A stretch of DNA of 64,000 nt from Sedimentisphaerales bacterium (lineage in GTDB: Bacteria > Planctomycetota > Phycisphaerae > Sedimentisphaerales > SM23-30): contig JAFGSR010000181.1 in NCBI GenBank assembly GCA_016934515.1, positions 3,554-67,553 of the forward strand. The letters are read 5' to 3'. This document shows positions 8,527-39,902 of the stretch, piece by piece. Both the position numbers and the translations under genes were made by a program. The stretch's first letter is position 1. Each line of letters starts with the position of its first letter. Under the pieces are notes generated by a model that saw only the letters and a program-made list of their open reading frames with translations, did not search any database and was not told where the DNA came from.

Positions 8527-8630
8527 GCTTAGGGTGGTCAAGCCACAACCAAGTTGAAACCGCCGACCTGCTGCGACGAGCGTCAGCACGGCGAGTGCGC
8601 GCCGATAAACGCTGATTATTAAAAGCCTAA

Positions 8631-8674
8631 AAAACAAAAGAACCCTCGGCTGGTTGGCTGGGGGCTCTTTTTTT
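8631..8674. terminator. Probable bidirectional rho-independent terminator between convergent ferritin-like genes
   Basis: Imperfect 11-bp stem GAACCCTCGGC (8640-8650) / GCTGGGGGCTC (8657-8667). A T7 run follows at 8668-8674 and an A-rich run precedes the stem. Confidence 0.5.
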
Positions 8675-8712
8675 GTTGAGTTATTATTCAGATCCGTCGT
8701 CGGCAGAGAGCT

Positions 8713-9201
8713 TTAATATTGATCGGAGTCGAAGAGGAATTCGGCGTTTTCGAGCACGATGGCGGGTTGACCGACGAACTCAAGAGTCAGGTTGAGAAGT
8801 TTTTCGTGTTTTTGTTCCTCTTTACAGAGCACCAGCCAGATTTCTTTGAGGGCGGGGTCGGTGGCATCATGGGCTAGTTTGGTGTAAAGTTTGACCGATT
8901 CGGTTTCCAGGTTTCGGGCTTTTTCCAGGACAGCTTTGAGGTTGTCATCGTCCTGAAAAAGGGTGGTGTCGGACTGGGAGAGGGATTCAAAGACATTTTT
9001 CACACCGGCGAGGGATTGATCTTTGATCAGATCGGTTTTGCCGTTTTTGAGGTCCTGGATGACCTGGAGGTGTCTTTTTTCGTCGTCGGCCAACGAGAGC
9101 AGCATTTTTTTAGCGGCGGGGTTGTGGGCATTATCGGCAGCGTCGGAGAAGAATTCCATTCCGTCTTGTTCTATTTTGAGGGCGAAATCGAGCATTTCCA
9201 T
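8713..9201 (-). CDS. Ferritin-like di-iron protein (rubrerythrin family)
   Basis: The ORF track gives 8713..9240. The ATG at 9201 (MEMLDFALKIEQDGMEFF...) follows an AGGAAAGGA RBS. Half-sites are IEQDGMEFF...ADDEKRHLQ and LETESVKLY...CKEEQKHEK. Confidence 0.7.
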   Translation of the reverse strand: MEMLDFALKIEQDGMEFFSDAADNAHNPAAKKMLLSLADDEKRHLQVIQDLKNGKTDLIKDQSLAGVKNVFESLSQSDTTLFQDDDNLKAVLEKARNLETESVKLYTKLAHDATDPALKEIWLVLCKEEQKHEKLLNLTLEFVGQPAIVLENAEFLFDSDQY

Positions 9202-9419
9202 AATATCCTTTCCTGCCTTAAGTCTATAACAATTATGCAATTAGCTGATTAATCAGTTGCTAATTGCCTAAGGATAACAATTGATTTGCAGGATGATAGC
9301 AGATATTATCCAAGTGGTCAAGGTTGCCGGGCTGGGGGGATTTCCGGTTGGAAAATGTAGAAACTGGGCAAGAGGATGGGACGGACGGAAACAGAAGCTG
9401 CTATGTTGAGGAATTGCAA

Positions 9420-11103: not shown

Positions 11104-11808
11104 ATGTTTAAAGCGGTAGTGTTTGATTTTGGCCAGACGCTGGTGGATTCGGCGGACGGATTTCGTCGGGCGGAGAAGGAGGCGCAGGCGAAGATATTTG
11201 GGGATTTGGCGTTTACCGATAAGGACGAGTTTTTGAAGGGGTATCGGCGGATTCGGCGGGAATTTCACGCTCAATCGAAGCTATCGCGGGTGAAGATCTG
11301 GGAGGAAGTGTACTGGTTTTTCTGTCGTCAGGCGGATATGGAAAAGCTGATGCAGTGGGAACAGGAATACTGGCAGAGGGTGAAGGAGCTGACGCGGGTG
11401 TTCGATGAGACCGTGGGGGTGCTGGGTGAATTGCAGAGGCGTTACAAGTTGGCGTTGGTGACGAATACACAGGGGCAAAGAAGCGGGAATGAACACCGAA
11501 TCAGTTTGTATCCGGAGCTGGAGAAGTTTTTTGAGGTGGTGGTAGTGGCGGGTGAAGGTGGGATTCCAGCTAAGCCGAGGATTGAGGCGTTTTCGGTGTG
11601 TCTGGAGCAGTTGAAGGTGTCGGCGGCGGAGGCGGTGTATGTGGGAGATGATTATCGCAACGATGTCGAAGGGGCAACGGCGGCGGGGATGAAGGCGGTG
11701 TGGCTGAAGCATCATTCGGTGGTGCGGAACTGGCCTGACGTAGAGCCGGAGGTGCCGGTGATAAGCAGTTTGGAAGAGTTGCTGGATTTGGAGAAAATTT
11801 TTAGTTAA
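11104..11808 (+). CDS. HAD-IA superfamily hydrolase (haloacid-dehalogenase-like motif I)
   Basis: 234-aa ORF. Motif I is VVFDFGQTLVD, motif II is LALVTNT, and motif IV is YVGDDYRNDVEGATAAGM. Confidence 0.8.
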   Translation: MFKAVVFDFGQTLVDSADGFRRAEKEAQAKIFGDLAFTDKDEFLKGYRRIRREFHAQSKLSRVKIWEEVYWFFCRQADMEKLMQWEQEYWQRVKELTRVFDETVGVLGELQRRYKLALVTNTQGQRSGNEHRISLYPELEKFFEVVVVAGEGGIPAKPRIEAFSVCLEQLKVSAAEAVYVGDDYRNDVEGATAAGMKAVWLKHHSVVRNWPDVEPEVPVISSLEELLDLEKIFS

Positions 11809-11890: not shown

Positions 11891-12048
11891 AAGATGGTTT
11901 TGAAATCCTAAACCCTAAATTCTAAACAAATTCAAAATTCTAGTTCCCTAAAACAGAAAACCGAATGAATGCGGCGGGCAGGGCCCACCCAACGGCGAAA
12001 TGCCGGATGCGCAGGTGAATAACTGCAGTGAAAGATTATGGAGGCTTG

Positions 12049-13530
12049 ATGAGTTCAAAAAAGGTGATGAATTATGTGGGCGGTGAGTGGGTGGAGCCGG
12101 AAAATGGTGGATGGCTGGACGTGGAGAATCCATCGACGGGGGAGGTGATTGGTCAATGTCCGTTATCGACCAGGGCGGCAGTGGACAGTGCGATTGAGGC
12201 GGCGGCGGGGGCTTATCCGGAATGGTCGCGGACGCCGGTGGCGCGTCGGGCGCAGTACATGGCGAAGCTAGCGGAGCTGTTGCGGGAGAATGAGGAGGCG
12301 CTGACCCGGGTAATGACCTTGGAGAACGGTAAGTCTTTGCCAGACGCCCAGGCGGAAGTGAAGCGGGCGTTGGAGAACTGCGAAGTGGCGAGTGGGATGC
12401 CGACGCTGATTCAGGGTGTCAAGGTGATGGGCTGTTCGTTTGGGATCGACGGTGAGGTGCTGCGGCTGCCGGTGGGGGTTTTTGGGATGATAGCACCGTT
12501 TAATTTTCCGGCGATGGTGCCGTTCTGGTTTTTGCCTTATGCGTTGGCGGCGGGCAATGCGATGGTGGTTAAGGCATCGGAGCAGGTGCCGCTGTCGATG
12601 CAGTTTGTGGGTGAGTTGATTGATCAGACGGGATTGCCGGCAGGAGTTTTCAGTTTGATTAACGGGGACCGGACGGCGGCGGAAGCGTTGGTGGCTAATC
12701 CGAATATTAAAGGGATTTCGCTGGTGGGCAACAGCAAGACCTGTCGGGTGGTGGGGCGAAAATGTGCCGAGGGCGGGAAGCGATTTTTGGGGATGGGCAG
12801 CGCGAAGAATCATCTGGTGGTGATGCCGGACGCGAAGGTGGATGAGGTGATTCGTAACATGATAACGTCCTGTTACGGTTGCGCGGGACAGCGGTGCATG
12901 GCATCGTCGGCGATAGTGGCGGTGGGCAGGGAGATGTACGAGAGAATCTGTGAGAAGTTTGTGTCGGCATCGCGGGAAGTGATTGTGGCCAATCCGCTGG
13001 ACGAGGTGGTGGCGGGCGAGGCGATGGTGATGGGGCCGGTGATTTCGGCACGGTCGAAGGAATTTATTCTTAGCATGATTGAAAAGGGATGCGCCGAGGG
13101 AGCGCATTTGGCATTGGACGGGCGGGGTCTGGTGGTGAAAGGGTGTGAGCAGGGTCATTTTGTCGGTCCGACGGTGTTTACGGATGTGAAGCCGGGTATG
13201 GCGGTGCACCGCACGGAGATTTTTGGGCCGGTGGTGGTGATTTTACAGGCGGAGACTCTGGACGAGGCGATTGGGATTATTAACGAGCACGAATACGGCA
13301 ACGGAGCTTCGATTTATACCCAGAACGGTTACTGGGCGCGGAAGTTCAAGCTGGAGACTTTGTGCGGGATGATTGGAGTGAATGTGGGGATTCCGGCGCC
13401 GGTGGCGTATCTGCCGTTTGGGGGGATGAAGGAGTCGCTGTTTGCGGACATTAAGGCTCAGAGCAGGTCGGTGATTGATTTTTATACGGAGAGCAAGGTG
13501 ATTACGGAGAGATATTGGCAGGAACAATAG
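12049..13530 (+). CDS. mmsA: CoA-acylating methylmalonate/malonate-semialdehyde dehydrogenase family
   Basis: The ORF track starts at 12028. The ATG at 12049 has a GGAGG 6 nt upstream (MSSKKVMNYVGGEW...). Family hallmarks are APFNFPAMVPFW and the catalytic-Cys block GCAGQRCMASS. Confidence 0.85.
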   Translation: MSSKKVMNYVGGEWVEPENGGWLDVENPSTGEVIGQCPLSTRAAVDSAIEAAAGAYPEWSRTPVARRAQYMAKLAELLRENEEALTRVMTLENGKSLPDAQAEVKRALENCEVASGMPTLIQGVKVMGCSFGIDGEVLRLPVGVFGMIAPFNFPAMVPFWFLPYALAAGNAMVVKASEQVPLSMQFVGELIDQTGLPAGVFSLINGDRTAAEALVANPNIKGISLVGNSKTCRVVGRKCAEGGKRFLGMGSAKNHLVVMPDAKVDEVIRNMITSCYGCAGQRCMASSAIVAVGREMYERICEKFVSASREVIVANPLDEVVAGEAMVMGPVISARSKEFILSMIEKGCAEGAHLALDGRGLVVKGCEQGHFVGPTVFTDVKPGMAVHRTEIFGPVVVILQAETLDEAIGIINEHEYGNGASIYTQNGYWARKFKLETLCGMIGVNVGIPAPVAYLPFGGMKESLFADIKAQSRSVIDFYTESKVITERYWQEQ

Positions 13531-13626: not shown

Positions 13627-13672
13627 TAAAAAAACTGCCCCGCGAAAAAATCGTAGGGCAGTTTTTTTTTTT
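13627..13672. terminator. Bidirectional rho-independent terminator shared by convergent mmsA and the phosphonate operon
   Basis: An A8 run is followed by the stem CTGCCC (13635-13640) / GGGCAG (13656-13661) and then a T11 run (13662-13672). Confidence 0.75.
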
Positions 13673-13731: not shown

Positions 13732-15120
13732 TTAGTCGCGGCCCCATTTTTCGAAATATGAACCGAAAATTTCATCATCGGTGGGAACGTATTCCTCGGT
13801 GGGTACGGAAAGCCAGGTGTAATTGAGGAATTGTTTCCAGTTGATGTTGTCGCTGGTCATGTTACCGGCCCAGGTGCCGCAGCCGAGGGTGTCGGTGAAG
13901 GGCTGGCCGTTGAACCAGCTGCCGCTGTTGGCCATGGCGTGGGGCATGTTGCAGTTGACGCGACCGACGTTGGCTTTGAGGCCCATTTCGAGTTGGCGTT
14001 CGCGGTTGAGGCTGTGTATGGAGGCGGAGTGACCTTCGCCGCTGAACTTTTGCATGAGCTTCATGCGTTCGATCATTTCGCTGAAATCGGTCCATTTCCA
14101 GACGGTCAGGACGGGAGAGATTTTTTCGCCACTGAAGCGGTCTTCGGGACCGGGTTTTTCGCCGATAACCATGAGGAAACGGGTGCCGGCGGGAACGGAG
14201 ATACCGGCGGCGGCGGCGATGACGGGAGCGGGTTTGGCGACGACGTCGCGGTTGAGGGAGTGACCATCGGGCCACATGTAGGTGCGGAGTTTTTCGCGTT
14301 CTTCGGTGGAGCAAAGGTAGCCACCTTCGCCCTTGAAGCACTCGATCATTTCATCGTAAACGCTGGCTTCGATGGCCACGGCATTTTCGGAGGAGCAGGA
14401 AGCGGAGTTGTTGGCGCATTTGGACTTGATGATTTTGGCGGCGGTGGATTTGATATCGACGGTTTCGTCAATGATGGAGATGACGTTACCGGCGCCAACG
14501 GTGTGAGCGGGTTTGCCGGCTTCGTAAACGACTTTGACCAGTGCGGCGCCACCGGTGGCGACGGCGAAATCACAGCCATTCATGAGTTCGCGGGTTTTTT
14601 CCTTACTGGTGTTTTTGATGCACTGGATGAGGTCTTCGGGGGCACCGATTTTTTTGAGTGCGGCGCGGCCGATTTCACAAGTGCGATAGGTGGACTTTTG
14701 GGTGCGGGGGTGAGGAGTTACGATTTGGGCGTTGCGGGTTTTTAGAATGTTGACGCCGAGCGCGCAGACGGTGGATTCCGGATTGGTGCAGGGCACGACG
14801 TTGGCGATGACGCCGATGGGTTTGGCGAATTTGACGATGCCGATTTCGGGAAGCTCTTCGACGATTCCGCAGGTTTTTGCATTACGCATGTCCCAGAGGG
14901 AGCCTTTGGTTTTGGACTGGATTTTACCGACTTTGTCTTCGTAAACGCCGATGCCGGATTCATCGACGGCCAGGCGGGCGAGTTCTTTGGCGGTTGACTC
15001 TTTGGACCACTCGTACCCGACGGCCAGAACCATTTCGTCGACCTTATCCTGAGGCCAATACTCGATAGTTTCGAAAGCCTTGCGGGCCTTTTTGTACATT
15101 TCCTGAATATTATCTTCCAT
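13732..15120 (-). CDS. CoA-acylating aldehyde dehydrogenase (AdhE-N / SucD / SauS-like family)
   Basis: The ORF track starts at 15204. The ATG at 15120 (MEDNIQEMYKKARKAFE...) has a GGAGG about 12 nt upstream. The protein has a VVPCTNPEST block and an active-site Cys context NNSASCSSENAV (compare the F-D-N-G-x-x-C-x-S-E-Q type). It is the last gene of the operon. Confidence 0.8.
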   Translation of the reverse strand: MEDNIQEMYKKARKAFETIEYWPQDKVDEMVLAVGYEWSKESTAKELARLAVDESGIGVYEDKVGKIQSKTKGSLWDMRNAKTCGIVEELPEIGIVKFAKPIGVIANVVPCTNPESTVCALGVNILKTRNAQIVTPHPRTQKSTYRTCEIGRAALKKIGAPEDLIQCIKNTSKEKTRELMNGCDFAVATGGAALVKVVYEAGKPAHTVGAGNVISIIDETVDIKSTAAKIIKSKCANNSASCSSENAVAIEASVYDEMIECFKGEGGYLCSTEEREKLRTYMWPDGHSLNRDVVAKPAPVIAAAAGISVPAGTRFLMVIGEKPGPEDRFSGEKISPVLTVWKWTDFSEMIERMKLMQKFSGEGHSASIHSLNRERQLEMGLKANVGRVNCNMPHAMANSGSWFNGQPFTDTLGCGTWAGNMTSDNINWKQFLNYTWLSVPTEEYVPTDDEIFGSYFEKWGRD

Positions 15121-15273
15121 GTTAGTTTTTACCTCCGTCTGCGGCAGCCGAGCATGCGGCTGTCCTGATTGAAAAAAGATTAAACAATTATTAACATTAA
15201 GCAATTAACCGGGTCAGAACCTGCTGACCATTGTTGTTGGTTAGGGTTTTTGATTAGACCTGAAAGGGCCAGG

Positions 15274-16338
15274 TTAATCAAGTTTTTTCCCAACGCTTTT
15301 AACGCCGGTTTTTTTGCTGGGATCTTCGATCTCTTCATGGATGCGATAGCCGGTGCCGAATATTTTTTGGCGTTCCTGGAAGGCCTGATTCCATTGATCG
15401 GGAGTATGGATCTGAGCGGGCTGGGCGTTTTTATCCCGTTCTTCGAGAGAGGGGACCGGGCGATCATCCGGGCCGTCGTAGATATCTTTGGGAGTCAGGG
15501 CCTGGCCGAGGCGGGTGTAGCCGTTTTCGGCGATATCGCGTTCAACTTCCTCGATGTAATGAGCACCGGCAGCGAAAGAGCGAGTGACAGCGAGGATGGC
15601 CCAGGTGGCTTCGGGCGAGAAGCCGAGGTCCATCATTACCGCCCCGGTAGCGCCGAGCATGTCGATATCGACCGGTTCGGAAGAAGCTTGTTGAGCGGCG
15701 GCGACGACCTCTTTCATGAAAGCGATGTTTTTGCCGGCTACGCCGAGTTTTTCGGCGTGAGCAATCATGCGTTTGGCGGCGGGGTCTTTGAGCATCAGGC
15801 TGGAGACCCCCAGGGACTCATCGTTGAGGTTGTCCTGGACGAGGAGTTTGGCCATTTCGGCGGTGGATTTGCCTTCTTGTTCGGCATGGTTGAGAAATTC
15901 TTCCAAGCGATTACCGAAAGCAGAGTAAGCGCCAAAGGCATGTCCGAAAGCCAGGATGGAAGCCCCGCAGGCCTGGGTAAGGAAGGTTTTGGATTGCGCT
16001 ACCATACGGGACATCAGCACAGGCATGGACAGGCCGTCCTCAAAAGAGAGAATCATTACGTAGTTTAGCATCTGCTCTTCTTCGACGAGCGGAATGCGGG
16101 ACTGGAAATCTACAAAGAGCACATCCGTAATGCCGTAACCTTCTTCCATCAGTTCGGTGGTATCGTAGCCGCGGGCCACGATGCGATGAACATTTTTGTA
16201 TGCTACTTCGGAGACCCACTGGAAAGGAGCCCGTTTGGTATCCAAGGGGACCGTGCCATATTCGCGTTTGCTGTAATCGTAAGGCATCTTGGGACTGTCA
16301 AGATTGCCAATTCCTTTTTTATCTCCTAAATCACCCAT
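15274..16338 (-). CDS. Citrate-synthase / citryl-CoA-lyase-fold protein, paralog B (His motifs degenerate)
   Basis: 354-aa ORF. The N-terminus reads IVARGYDTTELMEEGYGITDVLFVDFQSRIPLVEEEQMLNYVMILSFEDGLS, which is the citrate-synthase-family small-domain pattern. The C-terminus reads PVDIDMLGATGAVMMDLGFSPE...AVTRSFAAGAHYIEE. Its ATG overlaps the upstream gene by 13 nt; an alternative ATG is at 16287. Confidence 0.65.
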   Translation of the reverse strand: MGDLGDKKGIGNLDSPKMPYDYSKREYGTVPLDTKRAPFQWVSEVAYKNVHRIVARGYDTTELMEEGYGITDVLFVDFQSRIPLVEEEQMLNYVMILSFEDGLSMPVLMSRMVAQSKTFLTQACGASILAFGHAFGAYSAFGNRLEEFLNHAEQEGKSTAEMAKLLVQDNLNDESLGVSSLMLKDPAAKRMIAHAEKLGVAGKNIAFMKEVVAAAQQASSEPVDIDMLGATGAVMMDLGFSPEATWAILAVTRSFAAGAHYIEEVERDIAENGYTRLGQALTPKDIYDGPDDRPVPSLEERDKNAQPAQIHTPDQWNQAFQERQKIFGTGYRIHEEIEDPSKKTGVKSVGKKLD

Positions 16339-17222
16339 TGTTTGTACTCTCCTTGTTCTTTCTGGTTTTTGGCATATTCCTGACGTTCACTTTGCTTTGG
16401 AACACGACGGTCTTCGGGTCCGATGTACTTGATCATGCTGAGATCGATCATCTGGACCATGGGCTCGTTGCGGGAGGCGCCCCAGGCGCGGCCGCGTTTC
16501 ATATTGTAGATGGCGTGTGCGGCGCAACTAAACCCACGGCAGACGCTACCGATGCACCAGGCAGCATTGGGTGCGAAACCGATATCGCACAGAGCGGTAT
16601 TTCCGGAACCGACGACGTTGACGCCGACATAGGAACGTCCTTCGGCTTTGCGGCGGGCGTGGAAGTGTTTTTCGACGGCGCGTTGGAATTCGAGGTAAAC
16701 CCCCTGGACGCCGAGTTCTTCCTGTTTAACATGTATGGGTTCGGCACGGGGGTCGCTGTCGATGTGCTGTGGCTGTCCCATTCCCATGACGGGTGTTTTG
16801 TTGTCGAGGTATTCATCGACCAGGATTTTGGCCATTTCGTCGAGAGATTTTCCTTCTTTGTGGGCGCGGTCGAGATATTTGTTGAGCATGTAGCCATGCG
16901 CAGCCCCGGGACCATGTACGCCACCAAAAGTCATGATGGAGGCGGCAATGGCACAAGGCAGATTAGGCCGACCGGTTATAACGCCGATGGCACCAGCAGC
17001 GGAAGGCGACATGGAATGCTCCAGAAAAACGCCCATTTCGTACTTAAGCATTTTTTCTTCGGCGGCGGTGGGGATGCGGTTCTGGAACAACACAAACATA
17101 GCATCGCAGAAAGAATAACCTTTTTCAGCGAGGTCGCTGAGGTTGTACCCGCGCAAGACAGTTTTTTCTTCTGTCTTGTACGAGATCGACGTTTTTCTGC
17201 GAAATAGTGGATCCCTGTTCAT
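16326..17222 (-). CDS. Citrate-synthase / citryl-CoA-lyase-fold protein, paralog A
   Basis: 298-aa ORF. The sequence TSISYKTEEKTVLRGYNLSDLAEKGYSFCDAMFVLFQNRIPTAAEEKMLKYEMGVFLEHSMSPS resembles citryl-CoA lyase and citrate synthase. GGVHGPGAAHG corresponds to GPLHGGANE. VMGMGQPQHIDSDPRA corresponds to GFGHRVYKxxDPRA. Confidence 0.7.
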   Translation of the reverse strand: MNRDPLFRRKTSISYKTEEKTVLRGYNLSDLAEKGYSFCDAMFVLFQNRIPTAAEEKMLKYEMGVFLEHSMSPSAAGAIGVITGRPNLPCAIAASIMTFGGVHGPGAAHGYMLNKYLDRAHKEGKSLDEMAKILVDEYLDNKTPVMGMGQPQHIDSDPRAEPIHVKQEELGVQGVYLEFQRAVEKHFHARRKAEGRSYVGVNVVGSGNTALCDIGFAPNAAWCIGSVCRGFSCAAHAIYNMKRGRAWGASRNEPMVQMIDLSMIKYIGPEDRRVPKQSERQEYAKNQKEQGEYKQWVI

Positions 17223-17264
17223 TGGTAGCTCTCCAATCTTTTAAAATAGACGTAAATATTAAAA

Positions 17265-18629
17265 TTAACCCATGGGAATTCCCAGAGTGTTGATTTCTTT
17301 ATTTATTCCTTCGACGAAAGTAACATATTCATCCAGCGGTTTAGCGTTTTCAACATCGAAGCATCGGTCATAAGGTTTTCCGGCGGAAGCGGTTTTGAGG
17401 CCATTTTCATACCTGGTTAATATTGATTTGACGATACCATTGGCCTGGGAGCGGGTCATGCCGGCACAAGCCAAGGCCAAGTGTGTGTTGTTTTTCATTT
17501 CCAGAGGAGTGACGTAATCGGGCAGGGTCGCTTTGGCAGGATGAGGTGTCTGGATAGAAATCCCGGAGGCGATAGAGGCGGCGATAAAAGCAGCACTTTC
17601 ATAGTAGAAGGACTCCGTCCAGGGACCACCGGCAGCATAGGCCAAACCCAGAGTGGGCATGTTGGTGTTGCGGGCGAGGGCCTGGCCGGAGAGAGCCATG
17701 GACCAGATTACGGGGCGGGTAGTAGAACAGCCGTAGTGCATATCCATGGGCAGGGAGAGGTAATAGTTGCACTTGTAAACCAGCATCCCCAAAAAAGCGT
17801 AAGCGGTATTCAAGACGGCGTTAGCTTCGGGACCGCCGCCGTAACCGCCGACCATAGGTGCGGAGGCCAAGACGATATTGGTGCCGGAATTCAGAGAATA
17901 CTCGACTTTTTCCATCATTTCGTTGTTGGTTTTGAACTCGGCAAAAGTGCCCACGATGATAGCGTCGGAAGGAACCAGGGCAACCTTTGCAGCTTCGATG
18001 GTAGCATGGGAACTGCCGGCGGTGGCAATTCCATTGATAATGGCCAATCCATCACGGCCGGCGCGTTTGATGGCGGCACGAGCCACTTCGATAGAACGAA
18101 TGGCCCCTTCGATTTCGCCAGGCTGGCCGGTGATAATGTCCCGGCCGTCAATTTTGTCGAGAGCATTGACACTCATGGAATCGGCTTCGGGAATGGAGGC
18201 ATTACCGAAAACGATCTGGGATTCAATATCCTCTGAAGAAGCCATGATTCCTGAACCGACATGCATCCAGGGACGGGAATCACTGTCAGGTTTTCGGGAG
18301 CGGAAGATGCGAGCTTCTTTGCCTTGGCCAAAATGGCAATCGCCATCGTAATTTGCTATGGCGTCGAGAACTTCATCACGGGTAAAGGTGAACACCGTGT
18401 TGGTATTCTGGAAATAGCAACCGCAATTAACGCAGAAATCGACAGCGGCGGCAAAAACCCGATCGGCCAGGGCATCATCGGAGGGTACCGGATTATCCGG
18501 AGTGTATTGAATGTTATATTTACGGACCAGTTCGGTAAGATTCGTATAGATCCGATCCAGATCGAAAGATTCTACCTGAATTACTAAACCTTGTTTAGCA
18601 CGGTCCAGTATGTTTTGCACATGTGACAT
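17265..18629 (-). CDS. MtmB-family (monomethylamine methyltransferase-like) protein, pyrrolysine-free, paralog 2
   Basis: 454-aa uninterrupted ORF. It appears collinear over its full length with Methanosarcina MtmB (about 458 aa, recalled from memory). Matching blocks are DRAK..G, FTRDEVLDAIAN versus YTEDEIWDAINN, PMVGGYGGGPEANAV versus PIFGGYAGGIEETT, and the C-terminal SAGKPYDRCFDVENAKPLDEYV versus PAGKTFQECYDVKTVTPTEEYM. There is no in-frame TAG. Confidence 0.75.
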   Translation of the reverse strand: MSHVQNILDRAKQGLVIQVESFDLDRIYTNLTELVRKYNIQYTPDNPVPSDDALADRVFAAAVDFCVNCGCYFQNTNTVFTFTRDEVLDAIANYDGDCHFGQGKEARIFRSRKPDSDSRPWMHVGSGIMASSEDIESQIVFGNASIPEADSMSVNALDKIDGRDIITGQPGEIEGAIRSIEVARAAIKRAGRDGLAIINGIATAGSSHATIEAAKVALVPSDAIIVGTFAEFKTNNEMMEKVEYSLNSGTNIVLASAPMVGGYGGGPEANAVLNTAYAFLGMLVYKCNYYLSLPMDMHYGCSTTRPVIWSMALSGQALARNTNMPTLGLAYAAGGPWTESFYYESAAFIAASIASGISIQTPHPAKATLPDYVTPLEMKNNTHLALACAGMTRSQANGIVKSILTRYENGLKTASAGKPYDRCFDVENAKPLDEYVTFVEGINKEINTLGIPMG

Positions 18630-18695
18630 TAGTATATTCCGGTAATCCGTTTATGTTCCGGTAAAAGCAAGCTGAAACTGCCCTGAGGGCAGAAT

Positions 18696-20069
18696 TTACA
18701 GTTTGTAATTGAATCCCATGGTTCGGAGTTCATCTTTGACCTGGCCGTAAAGGTCCACGTATTCCTGGGTGGGTTTGCCGGTGTTGAGGTCGTAAGCTTC
18801 CTGGTATTTTTTGCCGCGGGGAGCGCTGTCGAGAGTGTCGATGTATTTGGGCAGCAGATTTTTGACCATTTCGTTGGCCTGGGCGCGAGTCATGCCGACG
18901 CAGGCTTCGATGAGTTCGACGGAGCCGAGTTTTTCCATCGGGGTGACATAGTCGTTCAATACCGCCCGGGCGGGGTGGCAGGTTTGAGCGCTGACCCCGG
19001 AGGAGATGGCCATGGCGATGTAAGCGGCGGTTTCGTAGAAGAACTGCTTGGTCATGGGCCCGGCAGCCATGTAGCCGAGAGACCAGACGAGTTCTTTGGT
19101 GTTTCGACTGATGGCCTGGTTACTGACGGCGCAACACCAGAGTACTTCAGGCATGGAGCAGCATCCGCGGGTGACGTGAATCGGAAAGGTCAGGTGGCAA
19201 TCGCACTGAAGAACGAGGAGTCCGAGCAGTCGATAAGCGACGTTTAGGACTGCGGTTCCGGCAGGGCCGCCGGCATAGCCACCGACGAGCGGACCTGATT
19301 CGCAGGCTATATTGGCGCCCCAACTGGCCAGGTAAGCGGCTTTGTTGAGGGTGGACATGCCGTATTTGAACTCGGCCAGGGCACCGACCAGCCAAGCGTC
19401 GGAAGGACGCATGCCGGACTGGGGCGTGCTGGCAGCGACCGCGGCGTAAGCGGTACCGGCGGTGGAGATGCAGTTACCGATGGCCAGACCGGGACGACCG
19501 ACATGGCGGGCGGCATCGCGGGCGATGCGCATGGCCCGGATGGCACCGAGGATTTCGGTAGGCTGACCGGACATGATCTTAATACCGTCGATAGAATCCA
19601 GAGCGGGGATACTGATGGAGTTGGCCTGTTTGATGGAGGCGTAACCCTTGACCTGGTTGAAGGCGACCCGTTCGTCAGTGGCGACGATGCCGGTGCCGAC
19701 GTGATACCAGGGCTGGGTGTCGCTGTCGGGTTTCCTCGGGGTCCAGACGTAACGGTCTTTGCCCTGGCCCATGATGCAGCGGCCGGGAGCATTGGCTATG
19801 GCTTCGAGGACTTCATCACGAGTGAACTTAACGATGCTGTTGGTATCGGGAATGAACATGCCGGCTTCAAGGACGAAATCGATGGCAGCCTGGTAAACGC
19901 GGTCAGCCAGAGCGTCGTCGGATGGGACGGGGGTTTTGGGATCAAAAACAATTTTGTATTTTTCGCAAAGTTTCCGGGCCGTCATGTAAACGACATCCAG
20001 ATCGAAGTTTTCTTCGCTCATGGTCGGGCCGGTATTGGCTCTTTTACAAAGTTCAGAAAAACCTATCAT
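18696..20069 (-). CDS. MtmB-family (monomethylamine methyltransferase-like) protein, pyrrolysine-free, paralog 1
   Basis: 457-aa uninterrupted ORF. It shares blocks with 17265..18629: PVPSDDALADRV, FTRDEVLEAIAN, RKPDSD..PW.HVG, GQPTEILGAIR, GRPGLAI, GGYAGGP, DYVTPME and GMTRAQAN. The C-terminal RGKKYQEAYDLNTGKPTQEYV is MtmB-like. Confidence 0.75.
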   Translation of the reverse strand: MIGFSELCKRANTGPTMSEENFDLDVVYMTARKLCEKYKIVFDPKTPVPSDDALADRVYQAAIDFVLEAGMFIPDTNSIVKFTRDEVLEAIANAPGRCIMGQGKDRYVWTPRKPDSDTQPWYHVGTGIVATDERVAFNQVKGYASIKQANSISIPALDSIDGIKIMSGQPTEILGAIRAMRIARDAARHVGRPGLAIGNCISTAGTAYAAVAASTPQSGMRPSDAWLVGALAEFKYGMSTLNKAAYLASWGANIACESGPLVGGYAGGPAGTAVLNVAYRLLGLLVLQCDCHLTFPIHVTRGCCSMPEVLWCCAVSNQAISRNTKELVWSLGYMAAGPMTKQFFYETAAYIAMAISSGVSAQTCHPARAVLNDYVTPMEKLGSVELIEACVGMTRAQANEMVKNLLPKYIDTLDSAPRGKKYQEAYDLNTGKPTQEYVDLYGQVKDELRTMGFNYKL

Positions 20070-20204
20070 TTAACACCTCGCAAACAGGAAAATTAAATTC
20101 CTTAATAAACCACAATTGCCTACAACAACACTTATCTTTTTCAAAAATTTTTTGCTCTAACAAAATGAGTGTTTGAATGGGCGAAAGGCCAATAATTTTT
20201 AATT

Positions 20205-21605
20205 TTAGCGCATTTTGTCAGGGGCTCTTATTATAATTCTTTTCAGGCACTGTTCGATAATGTTCAGGGCCTGGTCCATCTGTTCGACGGTAATAGTCAA
20301 CGCCGGGGTCAAGGTCAGGATATTTGACATGGTAACTTTAAAGCTGAGGCCTTTGCCAAGAGCGGCATACATCATTTTGTCAGCCAGGTCAGGTGCCGGT
20401 TGGTTTGAAACCTGATCGTGGACAATTTCCAATCCCAGCAGCAGTCCGATGCCGCGGACGGGACCGACATGAGAGTGATTTTTTTGCATTTGGCGCAGAC
20501 GGTCGAGAGCGTGGCTGCCGATTTTAGCGGCGTTTTCACAAAGGTGCTTTTCTTCGACGAATTCGATGGCAGCCAGTGCGGCGGCACAGGCAACGGGATT
20601 TTTTTCGTGGGTGTAGTGGCCCAGAGCCCGATCGCCGGCGACAGCCAGGTGTTCGCGGGCGAGAACGGCGGCATGAGGGAAGATACCGCCACCGAGGCCT
20701 TTGCCAATGACGAGGATGTCCGGGACGATGTCAAAGTGTTGGCAGGTGAACATTTTGCCGGTGCGGCCGAGGCAGTGAGGGATTTCGTCGAGAATGAGCA
20801 AGGCGTCGTGCTTGTCGCAAATCTGTCGGATTTTTTTCCAATATTTCTGTGAGGGAACCGATGAGGTGCTGCGGACGGTTTCGGCGATAAAGGCGGCGAC
20901 ATCGCCTTCCTTTTCCATGATGTAATCGACGTAATCGGCACACTTGAGGTTGCAGTTATCCCGGCAGTCCCAGAAGCAGCGTGGGCAATCGGGCGGCGGA
21001 ACGTGTTCGGTGCCGGGCAGGAGTGGTCCGACATCTTTGCGGAAGATGGTTTCACCGCCAACGCTGATCGCATCGAGCGAAGCACCATGGAAGGAATCCC
21101 AAGTGGAAATGGTTTTAAACCGGCCGGTGGCATAGCGGGCGAGTTTCAGAGCGATACCCATGGCGGAGGTGCCACCGGGAGCGAACAATACTTTGTTGAG
21201 ATCGCCGGGTGCCAAAGCGGTGAGCTTTTCGGCAAGCTTGATGGCGGGGATGTTGGTGTAACGTCGTGTGCAAAAGGGTAGCTCGTCGAGTTGGTCTTTG
21301 ATGGCCTGGATAACGCGCTGATTGCCAAAGCCAACCTGATGGACATTGTTGCCGTGGAAATCCATGTAGCGTCGTCCCTGAAGGTCCTGGAGATAAATAC
21401 CATCGCAGCGTTCCAGCACGTTCAGGCAGGGTGTGGAGAGTGACTGATGGAGGAAGAATTTTGCGTCGGCTTCGAGCCATTTTCGGGTTTGGGCATCGAT
21501 GTTGTTGCGGGACCAATCCGCACGGCGTGGGGAAATGTTCAAGTCGCCTTCTGATTGTAGCGTGATAAGCTGGTCATTTTTTTTCGGCACCAAAGGCATG
21601 ATCAA
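20205..21605 (-). CDS. Class-III (omega) aminotransferase-fold PLP enzyme
   Basis: 466-aa ORF with blocks FAPGGTSAMGIALKLAR, LILDEIPHCLGRTGKMF and the PLP-Lys context VIGKGLGGGIFP. It lies only 24 nt downstream of the PhnX-like gene. Confidence 0.85.
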   Translation of the reverse strand: MIMPLVPKKNDQLITLQSEGDLNISPRRADWSRNNIDAQTRKWLEADAKFFLHQSLSTPCLNVLERCDGIYLQDLQGRRYMDFHGNNVHQVGFGNQRVIQAIKDQLDELPFCTRRYTNIPAIKLAEKLTALAPGDLNKVLFAPGGTSAMGIALKLARYATGRFKTISTWDSFHGASLDAISVGGETIFRKDVGPLLPGTEHVPPPDCPRCFWDCRDNCNLKCADYVDYIMEKEGDVAAFIAETVRSTSSVPSQKYWKKIRQICDKHDALLILDEIPHCLGRTGKMFTCQHFDIVPDILVIGKGLGGGIFPHAAVLAREHLAVAGDRALGHYTHEKNPVACAAALAAIEFVEEKHLCENAAKIGSHALDRLRQMQKNHSHVGPVRGIGLLLGLEIVHDQVSNQPAPDLADKMMYAALGKGLSFKVTMSNILTLTPALTITVEQMDQALNIIEQCLKRIIIRAPDKMR

Positions 21606-21629
21606 ACTTCCTTTTTGTCAAAAATAATG

Positions 21630-22358
21630 TCAGGAAAATTCACTTTCGATCAGCGCCGGCAGCTCTCTGACGCTGGGGATGACATGGGTGTGATAATATT
21701 TTCCCCAAGCTTCGACCGGTCGGGGTCCGCTGAGCACCCCGACGATGCCGCGGCAGCCGGCGTTACGACCTTCCAGCATATCCGCCGGGGTGTCGCCGAT
21801 CTTGATTACTTCGTGTACGCTCTGGATACCCAACTGGGCCATGGCGTAAAAGATCATGAAGGGTGCGGGCCGGCCCATTTCGCCGACGACGTGTTCGACA
21901 TCCACGGAGAGATCGACCAGACCGTCGCGAACCCAACCCAGGCCGTCCATGATGGCTTCGGTTATGTCGCGATGGAAACCGGTGTCGGTTGCTACCTTAA
22001 TGCCGTTATCGTGGCACCAACGGAAGCAGTCGGCGGCACCGGGTACCTCTTTGACTTCTTTACGGTAGTGGTTGATCATGATTTCTGAGTAGCGGTTAAA
22101 CACCTTTACCGCTTCTTCATGGGTGTCGGGATCCTTGACTTTTTCAAAATCTTCGATCGCGATTTTCTTACCTTTTGATCGGGCGATAAGAAACTGATAA
22201 AGGTGTATTTTGTTCGTGCCCATGTGCAACAGAATTTCTTCCGGGGTGGTATTGAGATTGTGTTCCTGGGCCGCTTTATAAAGGCAGTCTCTCACCCCCG
22301 TGTCATCATAAACAGTGGTTCCGGAAAGATCAAACATCACCATGCTAATCTTGCTCAT
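21630..22358 (-). CDS. phnX: Phosphonoacetaldehyde-hydrolase-like HAD enzyme (PhnX-like)
   Basis: The ORF track starts at a TTG at 22379. The ATG at 22358 has a GGAG 6 nt upstream (MSKISMVMFDLSGTTVYD). Motif I is D-L-S-G-T, with a small residue at D+2 as in the PhnX motif D-W-A-G-T. HMGTNKIH aligns with the PhnX Schiff-base-Lys segment PMGLLKIDH. GRPAPFM and KIGDTPADMLEGRNAG align with the PhnX segments GRPYPWM and KVGDTVSDMKEGRNAG (Bacillus PhnX recalled from memory). Confidence 0.75.
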   Translation of the reverse strand: MSKISMVMFDLSGTTVYDDTGVRDCLYKAAQEHNLNTTPEEILLHMGTNKIHLYQFLIARSKGKKIAIEDFEKVKDPDTHEEAVKVFNRYSEIMINHYRKEVKEVPGAADCFRWCHDNGIKVATDTGFHRDITEAIMDGLGWVRDGLVDLSVDVEHVVGEMGRPAPFMIFYAMAQLGIQSVHEVIKIGDTPADMLEGRNAGCRGIVGVLSGPRPVEAWGKYYHTHVIPSVRELPALIESEFS

Positions 22359-22474
22359 TTTTTTCTCCAGGTTCTCCAATCAGGTTTTTACCACTTATTC
22401 AGATTCAAATTCTTTTGACCCATTAGTGCCTAAGCTAAAGTGTTTTTGACAATTTTTTGGTCGTTGCCGGAGAA

Positions 22475-23578
22475 TTACGGCACGACAATAGGTCTTATCG
22501 ATTCGCGTTTCTCCAAGGACTCCAGCGCCGCGGTTACTCCCGCCGCAGTCAAGGGAAATTCAGGACCGGTCAGCTTCCGGTAGGGATACCTCTGTCGGCT
22601 GCGATGCACCAGGTCCAGCGCCAGCCCCAAATAGCGGGAATCGTAGTTGTGCAGGCCCATGATAGTCAGACACTTAATAATCACGTCATGCGAGGCCAGG
22701 GTAAAAAGGTCGTCGGGATACACGCTGCCCTGTAGTAGATAGCGACCACCGATACGCAGCATCTTAACTCCCACAGGAATCACCTGGGCGAATCCCGCCA
22801 CTTCCACCACCAGGTCAGCTCCCCAGCCGTCGGTCAGGTCTTTAACCTGGCTGACCACTTCTTCGTCACCCAAGCCCTGGACGTTAAGGCAGTGATCGGC
22901 GCCAAATTCCCGGCCCACCTCCAACCGTTTGTCTAGGATATCGACCATGATTACCTGCTTGGCCCCCTGCTCTTTAGCCAGGGCCGCAGCGTACAAGCCC
23001 AACATCCCCGCCCCCTGGATTACCACGTTTTCCCCGGGCTGCAAGCCGATCCGAGCCAGCCCCGCCGTCACCGTGGCCGCGGCACACATGAGCGGTGAGA
23101 CCTCCTCATCAGCCATATCATCCGGCACTTTGAATACACTCGTGCCGGGCTTGACATACACATACTCGCCAAACGTGCCCATGAAATAGGGCGGCACATC
23201 GCTTTTGACATGGCCGTACTTAAATAGATTAAGGCACTTCTGCGGTAGCGAGTGAATCCGGCAAAAGCAGCAGTAACCGCAATTGGCCATGATTGCCCAG
23301 GTGATACGGTCACCCACTGCCAGGGATTTGCCCGTCGTGTCCTTTTCCACGCCGGAGCCCATCTGGGCGATGGTTCCCAGCCCTTCATGGCCCAGTATCG
23401 AAGGAGTAGGAAAGGGTCGGCGCCCCCGCCAACTGTGCATATCCGAGCCGCATACCGTAGCCATGGTGGTCTTCACCAGGATTGCCCCCGGCTCCAACTC
23501 TTCCGGAAGAGGAAAGCTATGCTCTTCCAGAGGTTTTCCTACCCCCATAAACATAACTACCTTGCCTGTCTTACCCAT
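22475..23578 (-). CDS. Zinc-dependent medium-chain alcohol dehydrogenase (phosphonate-catabolism-associated type)
   Basis: 367-aa ORF with zinc ligand blocks CGSDMH and GHEGLG, structural-zinc cysteines CGYCCFC, and the Rossmann motif VVIQGAGMLGLYAA. It sits between phnW and the PhnX-like gene, an arrangement recognised for this ADH clade (TIGRFAMs description, from memory). Confidence 0.85.
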   Translation of the reverse strand: MGKTGKVVMFMGVGKPLEEHSFPLPEELEPGAILVKTTMATVCGSDMHSWRGRRPFPTPSILGHEGLGTIAQMGSGVEKDTTGKSLAVGDRITWAIMANCGYCCFCRIHSLPQKCLNLFKYGHVKSDVPPYFMGTFGEYVYVKPGTSVFKVPDDMADEEVSPLMCAAATVTAGLARIGLQPGENVVIQGAGMLGLYAAALAKEQGAKQVIMVDILDKRLEVGREFGADHCLNVQGLGDEEVVSQVKDLTDGWGADLVVEVAGFAQVIPVGVKMLRIGGRYLLQGSVYPDDLFTLASHDVIIKCLTIMGLHNYDSRYLGLALDLVHRSRQRYPYRKLTGPEFPLTAAGVTAALESLEKRESIRPIVVP

Positions 23579-23683
23579 TGGATTATCCCTTTATTCACCT
23601 GAAAAGCCGCATAAACTTCATTTCAATAGTATGTTATGGATATATTAAGCGGCGTTATAGTATCGGTTTTTTTTCTTTCTGGT

Positions 23684-24817
23684 TTATAGGAGTTTAAGGC
23701 CCATTTCTTTGATTACATCGCGGATAGCGCCGAGGAGGTCCCTGACGTCAGAAGCAGAAATTCGGCCGATATTTCCGATTCGGAAGCAGTCGGCGTTGCT
23801 TACTTTTCCGGGATAAATCACGTAGTCTCTTTCATTAAGGGCTTCATAGAATTTTTCAAAGCTGAAGTTTGGATCTTTCGGATACCGGAAAGAAGTAATG
23901 ATGTAGCCCTGGACTTTTTGGTCGAGATATTCTTCGAAGCCCATTTTGCGCATGCCTTTGACGAGGGTTTCGTAATTGTTGCGATAGCGGGCAGCGCGAG
24001 CTTCGACGCCGCCTTCGGCATCAAGCTCCAGCAGGGCCTGGTAAAAAGCCAGCATCGCGTGGGTTGGTGGGGTAAAGCGGAACTGTCCGTTGGCTTCGAG
24101 GCCCTTGTACTGGGCACAAAGATCGAAAGAGAGGCTGCGAGCGTTGCCTTCGGTTTCGAGCAAGGAGCTGATCTTGGCAATGACGAAGGAAAAGCCGGGC
24201 ACGCCTTCGATGCATTTGTTGGCCGAGGATACCAGGTAATCGATGTTGCACTCGGCGAGGTTGGTAGGAACCGCACCAAAGCAGCTCATGGCATCGACGA
24301 AGAACTTTGCCCCGGCGGCTTTGACGATGGCGCCAACTTCCTTGATGGGATTCATGATACCGGTGGTGGTTTCACAATGGGTAATGGCGACATTGGTGAT
24401 GTTGGGGTCGGATTTGAGTTTGGCCTGGATCTGGGCCGGGTCGGGAGTCTGGTCTTCGGGGAATTCCATGGTTTCGAAATCGATCTTGAGTACTGATGCG
24501 ATTTTGGCGATACGGTGGCCGTAAGCACCGTTGATGACAACCAGGAGTTTGCCGTCCTGAGGAACATAGCAGCCGATGACCGCTTCGAGAGCGTAAGTGC
24601 CGCAACCCTGGAGGGGGACGGTAGTGTATTCGTCAGAGGTTGCCTGTCCGGCCTTGAGCAGCAGTTCACGGATGCCCTTGATGACACCGATGAATTCAAA
24701 ATCTCTGGAACCCAGGTCGCGAAGCATAGCTTGTTTGACCTTTGGGCTGGTGGTGAGAGGTCCGGGTGTGAAGAGGATTTTATCTTTCCAGCCGGGAATT
24801 TTCGTATTGGTTTTCAT
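23684..24817 (-). CDS. phnW: 2-aminoethylphosphonate:pyruvate aminotransferase
   Basis: 377-aa ORF. The N-terminus ILFTPGPLTTSPKVKQAMLRDLGSRDFEF and the PLP-Lys block YLVSSANKCIEGVPG are typical of PhnW. An AAAGGAG RBS lies upstream of the ATG at 24817. Confidence 0.9.
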   Translation of the reverse strand: MKTNTKIPGWKDKILFTPGPLTTSPKVKQAMLRDLGSRDFEFIGVIKGIRELLLKAGQATSDEYTTVPLQGCGTYALEAVIGCYVPQDGKLLVVINGAYGHRIAKIASVLKIDFETMEFPEDQTPDPAQIQAKLKSDPNITNVAITHCETTTGIMNPIKEVGAIVKAAGAKFFVDAMSCFGAVPTNLAECNIDYLVSSANKCIEGVPGFSFVIAKISSLLETEGNARSLSFDLCAQYKGLEANGQFRFTPPTHAMLAFYQALLELDAEGGVEARAARYRNNYETLVKGMRKMGFEEYLDQKVQGYIITSFRYPKDPNFSFEKFYEALNERDYVIYPGKVSNADCFRIGNIGRISASDVRDLLGAIRDVIKEMGLKLL

Positions 24818-39848: not shown

Positions 39849-39902
39849 GCAAAGTTGTTACGTGATCGAATGTAAAAATCACTTTTGCGAAGGGAAAATA
39901 AA

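Follow-up and report, generated by a model that had tools for sequence, protein, structure and literature searches.

The 64,000-nt window analyzed here, part of contig JAFGSR010000181.1 of a Sedimentisphaerales planctomycete, contains a nine-gene minus-strand operon. The locus is a hydrolytic aminophosphonate catabolic cluster of a known kind combined with two modules not previously linked to phosphonates. One is a pair of non-pyrrolysine (non-Pyl) MtmB-family genes, MtmA and MtmB2. The other is the Ccl module, which consists of the citryl-coenzyme A (CoA)-lyase (CCL)-like gene CclA, its degenerate paralogue CclB, a gene for a SauS-like CoA-acylating aldehyde dehydrogenase (ALDH), and HAD41, a HAD-IA hydrolase gene that lies outside the operon. 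We propose a combined model in which phosphonoacetaldehyde (PAA) is the catabolic hub, the Mtm pair carries out demethylation, and the Ccl module provides a CoA route; taken as a whole, this model is quite possible, short of probable. Literature searches found no paper tying MtmB-like or citrate-synthase-like proteins to phosphonate degradation and no paper with phosphonoacetyl-CoA as a catabolic intermediate of phosphonate degradation. The novelty claimed for the gene set in the original prediction, which was made from the sequence of the window, holds to the extent that no published pathway was found to cover either module; four of the operon genes are already explained.

Four operon genes match known families of phosphonate catabolism

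PhnW exceeds the cut-offs of NF010006 (495 bits, cut-off 296) and TIGR02326 (486 bits, cut-off 401) and is predicted by homology to convert 2-aminoethylphosphonate (AEP) to PAA. The Zn-dependent alcohol dehydrogenase (ADH) scores 302 bits on TIGR03366 ('phosphonate catabolism associated alcohol dehydrogenase'), just below the cut-off of 328, and its orthologue in locus L099 scores 343 bits, above the cut-off. Residues Cys43, His64, and Cys165 and a four-Cys cluster (CGYCCFC...C) match the Zn ligands of PbfG, the comparison being with their description in PMC13576164 and not with the PbfG sequence. PbfG, a pf00107 enzyme reported in Planctomycetota, oxidizes 2-hydroxyethylphosphonate to PAA (Piazza et al. 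2026, PMC13576164). The ADH of the operon is probably of the PbfG type and would catalyze the same oxidation. Identity with PbfF, the racemase of 1-hydroxy-2-aminoethylphosphonate (HAEP), was rejected, since PbfF belongs to pfam02826.

The PhnX-like hydrolase misses the cut-offs of both TIGR03351 (170 bits, cut-off 219) and TIGR01422 (115 bits, cut-off 220). When compared with true PhnX, however, it retains the nucleophile motif DxSGT (FDLSGTT), the Schiff-base Lys of MGxxK (HMGTNKIH), and the motif-III Arg (GRPAP). Orthologues with 78–80% identity are located upstream of CclA in six loci (L106, L107, L114, L137, L154, and L161), and the true start of the gene is probably the ATG near 22358. 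The protein is thus probably a PAA hydrolase of a PhnX-like subfamily and not a canonical PhnX; the earlier call stands for the Asp, Lys, and Arg motifs but not at the level of the canonical PhnX cut-off.

The class-III aminotransferase-fold enzyme, whose gene adjoins the PhnX-like gene, was originally described by its fold and placed outside the recognized AEP module. It does not belong among the unexplained genes: it scores 700 bits on NF049939 (cut-off 525) and is assigned to PbfA, the R-HAEP ammonia-lyase characterized in 2021 (Zangelmi et al. 2021, PMC8154272). By homology, it would form PAA from R-HAEP. The operon therefore appears to combine three PAA-forming enzymes (PhnW, the PbfG-type ADH, and PbfA) with one enzyme, the PhnX-like hydrolase, that probably cleaves PAA. 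The original reading of the first three genes as a module leading from AEP through PAA to acetaldehyde fits PhnW and the PhnX-like hydrolase, but not the ADH, which would form PAA from 2-hydroxyethylphosphonate. The family calls made for the nine genes are otherwise upheld by Pfam and NCBIfam profile searches.

Pfam searches of essentially all large open reading frames (ORFs) of the window found no phosphoenolpyruvate (PEP) mutase, no corrinoid protein, and no pterin-binding or UroD-type MT2. A corrinoid-protein hidden Markov model (HMM), built from 53 neighbours of distant MtmB relatives, likewise has no match anywhere in the 64 kb. These scans agree with the absences noted originally, and the preference for catabolism over biosynthesis is upheld by the lack of PEP mutase in the window. 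A biosynthetic reading was rejected on the same ground, and also because C–P formation from acetyl-CoA would be energetically implausible.

The Ccl module is fixed in composition and recurs with phosphonate genes

CclA, CclB, the SauS-like dehydrogenase, and HAD41 form a fixed four-gene module. Full coverage was taken to mean at least 4 kb of sequence upstream and at least 6 kb downstream of CclA, and 19 loci qualify. CclB and the dehydrogenase are present in all of them (19/19 each), and an HAD41 orthologue follows the dehydrogenase gene in 18; the remaining locus, L107, has a PhnX-like gene instead. In the window, HAD41 is on the opposite strand. An AEP aminotransferase is found in 12 of the 19 loci, a PbfG-type ADH in four, PbfA in three, MtmA/MtmB2 in three, the PhnX-like hydrolase in one, and true PhnX in none. 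The 12 aminotransferases comprise five of the PhnW type and seven that are AepZ-like (416 bits on TIGR03301, cut-off 361). The carriers encoded upstream of the module are an EamA protein (TIGR03340, 'phosphonate utilization associated'), a PhnT2-like ABC ATPase, and a GlpT/PgtP-like transporter of the major facilitator superfamily (MFS). These recurrent Ccl/phn loci show that the citrate-synthase-like genes travel together with phnW in relatives, a point that the original prediction proposed to check.

CclA was confirmed on 309 metagenome contigs, and about 500 protein clusters were found for the module. CclA is 81–98% identical over 80 metagenome loci and 81–88% identical across more than 110 protein clusters. 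Among 1.84 billion representatives, just 28 match CclA at E ≤ 1e-30, and the identity of its full-length relatives drops stepwise from 60% through 44% to about 30%.

Three lines of evidence suggest that the Ccl module processes PAA. First, it is found with three independent PAA-forming enzymes in loci without PhnX or PhnY–PhnA. In particular, the arrangement CclA–CclB–SauS-like–HAD–ADH with a PbfG-type ADH occurs in L086, L099, L100, L113, and L116 with neither PhnX nor PhnY–PhnA nearby. Second, the Ccl module and true PhnX appear to swap after phnW–MtmA–MtmB2. These three genes are followed by true PhnX in L004 and L005 and by the Ccl module in the window, L006, L009, L011, L012, L088, L090, and L098, and in L015 phnX is positioned directly upstream of MtmA; true PhnX and the Ccl module look interchangeable downstream of phnW–MtmA–MtmB2. 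Third, the dehydrogenase groups with acylating enzymes for anionic substrates. Its HMM scores are 479 bits for SauS (NF047625), 382 bits for AdhE, and 301 bits for the EutE type, and its best solved relative is SucD (8cei), with 299 bits compared with 266 bits for AdhE. The original prediction of a terminal acylating ALDH that could take acetaldehyde is therefore supported as to the acylating family, but the enzyme is closer to SauS and SucD, whose substrates are anionic. Because PhnX is usually missing from loci with the module, the latter has the appearance of a different means of PAA disposal and not of a step after PhnX.

A sulfonate (taurine/isethionate) reading of the module was rejected, because the aminotransferases, PbfA, the ADH, and the transporters match phosphonate-specific models.

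HAD41 conserves the nucleophile Asp in motif I (FDF[G/T/C/D]QTL), and its motifs II to IV are intact. The general-acid/base position of the HAD-phosphatase motif DxDx(T/V), Asp+2, is occupied by Gly in most of 34 orthologues and by Thr, Cys, or Asp in the others. The nearest solved relative of HAD41 is N-acylneuraminate-9-phosphatase, and the protein matches neither of the PhnX models TIGR01422 and TIGR03351. Judged by its motif, HAD41 would be suited to substrates whose leaving group is good, for example an activated C–P bond or an acyl phosphate.

Active-site residues of CclA and CclB

CclA scores 54 bits on Pfam Citrate_synt (cut-off 27), and its closest solved structure by sequence is citryl-CoA lyase (6hxp). 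CclB scores 22.8 bits on the same Pfam model and 102 bits (E 4e-29) on the NCBIfam citryl-CoA-lyase subfamily, and is 34% identical to CclA (E 1e-46). The AlphaFold2 (AF2) model of CclB, with a predicted local distance difference test (pLDDT) score of 49.5, was too poor for a fold search. CclB is probably the partner subunit of CclA.

We aligned CclA and CclB with E. coli GltA, B. subtilis citrate synthase, and Hydrogenobacter citryl-CoA lyase. The catalytic triad is H274, H320, and D375 in the pig numbering, corresponding to H264, H305, and D362 of E. coli. At the positions of pig H238, H274, R329, and R401, CclA has His69, His103, Arg159, and Arg229, while the catalytic His (H320) and the catalytic Asp (D375) are replaced by Gln150 and Val204; all six residues are invariant in 84 orthologues. 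CclB has Asp at H238, Phe/Tyr at H274, Ala at R329, Val at H320, and Leu at D375, and keeps only the last Arg (R401, Arg253 in CclB); this pattern is equally fixed in 73 orthologues. Since the catalytic His/Asp pair is lost in both proteins, neither is a citrate synthase or a citryl-CoA lyase mechanistically. CclA keeps the enolate-stabilizing His and the anion-binding residues without the acid/base pair for Claisen chemistry. Phosphonoacetyl-CoA would resemble citryl-CoA, with a tetrahedral phosphonate replacing C3. If its Cα–P bond were cleaved, the same enolate would result, and the two missing residues would not be required.

Short CCL-like proteins of a wider family that have the QPQH motif and lack the catalytic Asp are also encoded in amine-catabolic clusters of L166 (4066–6829) and L168 (6234–13281). 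Their genes are located between or after those of CoA-transferase subunits, beside ALDH and class-III aminotransferase genes. This context supports the action of the CCL-like family on an acyl-CoA made from an amine-derived aldehyde.

The MtmA/MtmB2 pair belongs to a clade linked to phosphonate genes

MtmA and MtmB2 score 292 and 256 bits, respectively, on Pfam MtmB (cut-off 25) and are 47% identical to each other (BLASTP, E 7e-146). The AF2 model of MtmA (pLDDT 87.5) superimposes on M. barkeri MtmB (1nth) with a TM score of 0.94 and a root-mean-square deviation of 1.9 Å (Foldseek). Pyl202 of MtmB is aligned to Gly198/Asn199, and the ORFs of MtmA and MtmB2 have no in-frame TAG or internal stop. 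In the MtmA model, pLDDT falls below 50 only at residues 202–204, a loop just past the position of the pyrrolysine in MtmB, and this is consistent with a remodelled substrate site.

We surveyed MtmB homologues in one genome per species (78 loci). Neighbour joining places the Planctomycetota sequences in a single monophyletic clade with the subclades MtmA and MtmB2, the latter of seven sequences. The clade is nested within the bacterial non-Pyl family, and its sister comprises corrinoid-linked sequences of Anaerolineae and Desulfobacterales. A phnW, pbfA, or true phnX gene is directly adjacent in 16 of the 18 informative loci of the Planctomycetota clade, compared with 1 of the 63 loci of other clades (p = 8e-14). 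The MtmB-like genes thus co-travel with phnW in relatives, which the original prediction had also proposed to check. The typical gene order in the clade is phnW–(pbfA)–MtmA–(MtmB2). PhnW orthologues with 60–72% identity lie immediately upstream of MtmA in L001, L005–L007, L009–L012, L088, L090, L091, and L098, and MtmA adjoins PAA-forming genes whether the partner is true PhnX (L004, L005, and L015) or the Ccl module.

The pair differs from its relatives in its partners. A TIGR02370-type corrinoid protein is encoded nearby in 58 of the 63 loci outside the Planctomycetota, often with MttB-family and class-III aminotransferase genes as well, whereas the corrinoid HMM detects none beside the genes of the Planctomycetota clade, either in its 22 loci or in the window (p = 6e-16). 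The clade retains about 30 family-wide conserved polar residues. It also has invariant residues of its own (H123, H365, C98, C289, C303, Q362, and N253), which are not conserved in relatives.

The genes pbfA and MtmB2 occur together with MtmA only in the window and in L009. Five loci have pbfA and MtmA without MtmB2 (L001, L002, L003, L010, and L091), and eight have phnW, MtmA, and MtmB2 without pbfA (L005, L006, L007, L011, L012, L088, L090, and L098). This rare co-occurrence suggests that pbfA and MtmB2 handle alternative substrates. L002 (7595–11380) and L003 (3707–7492) contain a minimal cluster of a pfam02826 2-hydroxyacid dehydrogenase, pbfA, and MtmA, and none of phnW, phnX, and the Ccl genes occurs within 10 kb of it; the cluster is flanked by genes for large secreted proteins with purple-acid-phosphatase N-terminal domains.

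PhnW cannot use N-methyl-AEP, and the known N-methyl-AEP enzymes are FAD oxidoreductases, of which the PbfD oxidases need O2 and PbfC has an unknown physiological acceptor (PMC10590968). We infer that the role put forward in the original prediction, the trimming of N-methylated aminophosphonates, is the best reading of the pair.

In the sister-clade locus L047, from a Desulfobacteraceae metagenome-assembled genome, two MtmB-like genes are accompanied by genes for an MttB homologue, a pterin-binding MT2, a corrinoid protein, and an electron-transfer flavoprotein, and pbfA and phoU–pstBA are located ~2.3 kb past the MtmB-like genes. The pbfA gene of L047 (13647–14993, minus strand) has a single in-frame TGA stop at 14400–14402; on NF049939, the halves of the gene reach 366 and 327 bits. 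The context of the stop is PPDEY-TGA-CIFGC, where PbfA of the window reads PPPDCPRCFWDC. The TGA could be a selenocysteine codon next to Cys, a sequencing error, or the mark of a pseudogene.

Proposed scheme and alternatives

In the scheme that we propose, PAA would be fed by PhnW from AEP, by the PbfG-type ADH from 2-hydroxyethylphosphonate, and by PbfA from R-HAEP, and the PhnX-like hydrolase could cleave it. MtmA/MtmB2 would demethylate the N-methylated forms of AEP or HAEP with no need for oxygen and pass the primary amines to PhnW and PbfA, which cannot use the methylated substrates; the methyl group would go either to a corrinoid protein whose gene lies at another site in the genome or to a new kind of acceptor. 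The SauS-like dehydrogenase would convert PAA, CoA, and NAD(P)+ to phosphonoacetyl-CoA. A CclAB heteromer, with CclA as the catalytic subunit, would bind phosphonoacetyl-CoA, whose C–P bond would be cleaved to give acetyl-CoA and phosphate. HAD41 would either take part in phosphoryl transfer or hydrolysis or serve as an additional hydrolase of PAA. The net yield from aminophosphonates would be phosphorus, nitrogen, and acetyl-CoA, with neither free acetaldehyde nor O2 involved. That both new activities occur, namely CoA-dependent C–P cleavage by CclA/CclB with the SauS-like dehydrogenase and the HAD protein, and non-Pyl Mtm demethylation possibly without a dedicated corrinoid protein, is conceivable but doubtful. 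In that reading, the Ccl pair would have descended from citryl-CoA lyase and replaced PhnX or PhnY–PhnA, and MtmA/MtmB2 would be the first non-Pyl MtmB homologues to which a substrate can be assigned.

Several observations weigh against the combined model. All steps proposed for the five novel genes are drawn from gene context and residues. On the Ccl side, an aminotransferase is missing near the module in 7 of the 19 fully covered loci, and the PhnX-like hydrolase of this window would make the CoA route redundant here. The pattern G-x-(G/H)-QPQH without the Asp is also found in distant CCL-like proteins outside phosphonate clusters; the His/Asp pair was lost in the ancestry of the whole CCL-like family, and the residue pattern did not arise for C–P cleavage in particular. 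The SauS score of the dehydrogenase, 479 bits, is below the cut-off of 600, and the orthologue in L136 scores 508 bits. On the Mtm side, the main weakness is that neither the 64-kb window nor the 22 clade loci contain a nearby corrinoid protein, MT2, or activase, which sits badly with a canonical methyltransferase. We know of no non-Pyl MtmB-family member with a demonstrated substrate, and a non-Pyl MtmB homologue met in a 2022 paper could not be assigned a function (PMC9768040).

HAD41, moreover, has no clear role in the CoA scheme and could itself be a PAA hydrolase, in which case the dehydrogenase would be left as a plain acetaldehyde dehydrogenase. The corresponding alternative, in which only HAD enzymes (the PhnX-like hydrolase and/or HAD41) cleave PAA, the SauS-like enzyme is an acetylating acetaldehyde dehydrogenase, as originally suggested, and CclAB acts on acetyl-CoA in another way or has a non-catalytic role, is the main rival, although unlikely. 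HAD41 has a conserved nucleophile Asp without a conserved Asp+2, as in phosphonatase and the dehalogenases, which need no general acid, and L107, the sole fully covered locus without HAD41, carries a PhnX-like gene. It has been proposed that anaerobes convert AEP to acetyl-CoA by way of PhnX and an acetaldehyde dehydrogenase (PMC9324843), and the SauS-like dehydrogenase still scores 301–382 bits on acetaldehyde-dehydrogenase models. However, it scores higher on SauS and SucD, which have anionic substrates, than on the acetaldehyde enzymes, and HAD41 has no detectable PhnX signature. This alternative also gives no role to CclA and CclB, the most conserved genes of the module, which are never absent (19/19; 81–98% identity for CclA).

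The absence of corrinoid-protein genes (0 of 22 clade loci compared with 58 of 63 loci of relatives) can also be explained if MtmA and MtmB2 are no longer corrinoid-dependent and catalyze another reaction on aminophosphonates or PAA, for example transfer to another acceptor or a C–N or C–P step. The clade's own invariant residues H123, H365, C98, C289, and C303 and the minimal 2-hydroxyacid dehydrogenase–PbfA–MtmA clusters of L002 and L003, which contain neither PhnX nor PhnW, would fit such a change. We consider it improbable, given that about 30 family-wide polar residues and a near-identical fold are kept. Corrinoid proteins can be shared and encoded elsewhere, as in the MttB-family systems of Eubacterium limosum, and L047 of the sister clade joins the same family to a complete corrinoid system and pbfA.

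It is very improbable that the Ccl module runs reductively in a Sau-like manner for the uptake of phosphonoacetate, with phosphonoacetyl-CoA formed from it with the aid of CclAB, the dehydrogenase reducing this to PAA, and HAD41 or the PhnX-like hydrolase cleaving the PAA. SauS, the best HMM match of the dehydrogenase, does work reductively: in the Sau pathway of Cupriavidus necator, it physiologically reduces sulfoacetyl-CoA to sulfoacetaldehyde. A reductive direction would also give HAD41 a clear role as a hydrolase and would be in line with the 7 of 19 Ccl loci without an aminotransferase. However, the module contains no gene for an ATP-dependent ligase or a CoA-transferase, and to our knowledge the citrate-synthase fold does not form thioesters. 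In addition, the linked PAA makers (PhnW/AepZ, PbfA, and PbfG) make a reductive entry unnecessary in the loci that have them.

That the five extra genes are here by coincidence and serve an unrelated metabolism, for example of sulfonate, beta-alanine, or methylamine, is scarcely credible. In its favour, the top HMM of the dehydrogenase is that of a sulfoacetaldehyde enzyme, the MtmA-clade loci L013 and L014 have no phn neighbours, and the 135-nt gap between pbfA and MtmA holds a weak promoter-like match. Against it, the genes are found linked on dozens of independent contigs, in rearranged orders and with three different PAA-forming enzymes, the aminotransferases of the module exceed NCBIfam AEP-specific cut-offs, and the transporters are of the phosphonate type. 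The arrangement is not due to chance, because the same gene sets and orders recur on these contigs.

The combined model of a PAA hub with Mtm demethylation and a Ccl-dependent CoA route would bear on how N-methylated aminophosphonates are used without oxygen and on whether another route of C–P cleavage exists. Phosphonates make up a large reservoir of organic phosphorus in marine waters and sediments, and AEP, HAEP, N-methyl-AEP, and 2-hydroxyethylphosphonate are the commonest natural forms. All hydrolytic phosphonate routes known to us end in PhnX or PhnY–PhnA. The locus supplies clonable candidates for the oxygen-free use of methylated aminophosphonates in strict anaerobes, and candidates for a possible further way to break an activated C–P bond. 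If the model is true, it would give a first functional foothold in the non-Pyl MtmB homologues and in the 'QPQH' citryl-CoA-lyase-like proteins. Tracking recurrent unexplained genes in phn clusters is the approach that yielded PbfA to PbfG.

Organization of the operon and its surroundings

The features of the locus are listed in Table 1. The coordinates of the nine same-direction ORFs, 13732–24817 on the minus strand, are exactly as originally reported. The intergenic gaps, in order from phnW to the SauS-like gene, are 105, 95, 24, 135, 66, 42, −13, and 69 nt, in agreement with the small gaps noted before, and a terminator scan found no minus-strand terminator-like site inside them. At the downstream end of the operon, the strong bidirectional terminator of the original prediction is confirmed as an inverted repeat (13628–13645 and 13651–13668) with 18-nt arms that are 89% complementary and 5 nt apart. 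The repeat is bordered by an A7 run and a T11 run, as seen by direct inspection and an inverted-repeat search; the consensus terminator scan of the window did not list this element.

Table 1 Coordinates of the operon and of adjacent features in the window
Feature	Position	Strand	Basis or remark
phnW (2-aminoethylphosphonate:pyruvate aminotransferase)	23684..24817	-	NCBIfam equivalog
PbfG-type Zn-dependent dehydrogenase (probable)	22475..23578	-	TIGR03366 just below cut-off, Zn ligands
PhnX-like HAD hydrolase, probable PAA hydrolase	21630..22379	-	TIGR03351/TIGR01422 below cut-off; motifs kept
PbfA (R-HAEP ammonia-lyase)	20205..21605	-	NF049939
MtmA (non-pyrrolysine MtmB family)	18696..20069	-	Pfam MtmB, AF2 fold
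MtmB2 (MtmA paralogue)	17265..18629	-	Pfam MtmB
CclA (citryl-CoA-lyase-like, citrate-synthase fold)	16326..17222	-	Pfam Citrate_synt
CclB (degenerate CclA paralogue)	15274..16338	-	start overlaps CclA end by 13 nt
SauS-like CoA-acylating aldehyde dehydrogenase	13732..15204	-	NCBIfam SauS best HMM
Bidirectional intrinsic terminator	13628..13668	.	between operon and convergent ALDH gene
CoA-acylating ALDH, methylmalonate-semialdehyde-dehydrogenase family	12028..13530	+	TIGR01722
HAD41 (HAD-IA hydrolase, fourth Ccl-module member)	11104..11808	+	beyond terminator, opposite strand
Purple-acid-phosphatase-like metallophosphoesterase	9324..11060	+	Pfam Metallophos + Pur_ac_phosph_N

The convergent ALDH scores 472 bits on TIGR01722 (cut-off 448.5). 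Its orthologues adjoin phn/Mtm genes in four loci (L004, L005, L007, and L009), and in two others (L094 and L095) they follow the HAD gene. The enzyme might accept PAA as well, the phosphonate counterpart of malonate semialdehyde. The gene for the purple-acid-phosphatase-like esterase adjoins HAD41, and a homologue with 25% identity is encoded upstream of CclA in L122; the esterase could release AEP or N-methyl-AEP from phosphonolipid or glycan head groups. Of the two genes originally taken to fit a phosphorus-scavenging neighbourhood, the HAD hydrolase is the module member HAD41, and the association of the esterase is only loose. The MFS transporter at 3264–4574 is unrelated to the GlpT/PgtP-like MFS transporter that precedes CclA in other loci, and therefore the operon has no obvious dedicated importer. 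Elsewhere in the window, a divergent rubrerythrin/ferritin-like gene pair and a sulfatase gene (8080–9240; 39885–41450) fit an anaerobic member of the Sedimentisphaerales that degrades sulfated glycans. The GC skew is strongly positive (0.2–0.36) across 6–14 kb and 32–48 kb of the window.

Comparison with known systems

The operon resembles the published phnW–phnX–pbfA clusters (PMC8154272) in that PhnW and PbfA score above their cut-offs, a phosphonatase-type HAD protein is present, PAA is central, and no oxygen is needed; it differs in that the PhnX-like protein is below the PhnX cut-off and in its five extra genes. With the PbfG/PhpC clusters (PMC13576164), it appears to share a TIGR03366-family Zn-ADH with matching Zn ligands and the association with PAA-degrading genes. 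The published clusters pair PbfG with PhnX or PhnY–PhnA, whereas here and in L086, L099, L100, L113, and L116 the partner is the Ccl module.

PbfB, PbfC, and PbfD (Zangelmi et al. 2023, PMC10590968) make N-methyl-AEP usable and are encoded inside phn clusters, as proposed for the Mtm pair, but the two groups are unrelated in fold and chemistry. The Pbf FAD enzymes oxidize the C–N bond to give PAA and methylamine, PbfC being a dehydrogenase that uses O2 poorly (PMC10590968). With the Mtm pair, in contrast, AEP would be left once the methyl group is taken off, and the pair is found in strict anaerobes. The fold of the MtmA model is that of MtmB (TM score 0.94), but the Mtm pair lacks pyrrolysine, and genes for a corrinoid protein, an MT2, or an activase are not among its neighbours. 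In the first respect, it is similar to the non-Pyl MttB enzymes (MtgB, MtcB, and MtpB), in which an ordinary residue replaces pyrrolysine; as with these enzymes, a larger amine substrate is expected.

CclA shares with citryl-CoA lyase and the CCL module of ATP-citrate lyase (6hxp) a short citrate-synthase fold, the His equivalent to H274, and two oxaloacetate-binding Arg residues. It differs from citryl-CoA lyase by the replacement of H320 with Gln and of D375 with Val, by the pairing of two paralogues of which one is degenerate, and by a phosphonate context in place of the tricarboxylic acid (TCA) or reductive TCA cycle. Finally, SauS provides the best HMM for the dehydrogenase, and its substrate is the sulfonate analogue of PAA. 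The SauS-like dehydrogenase differs from SauS in its score below the cut-off, in its phosphonate partners, and in the absence of both SauT and Xsc.

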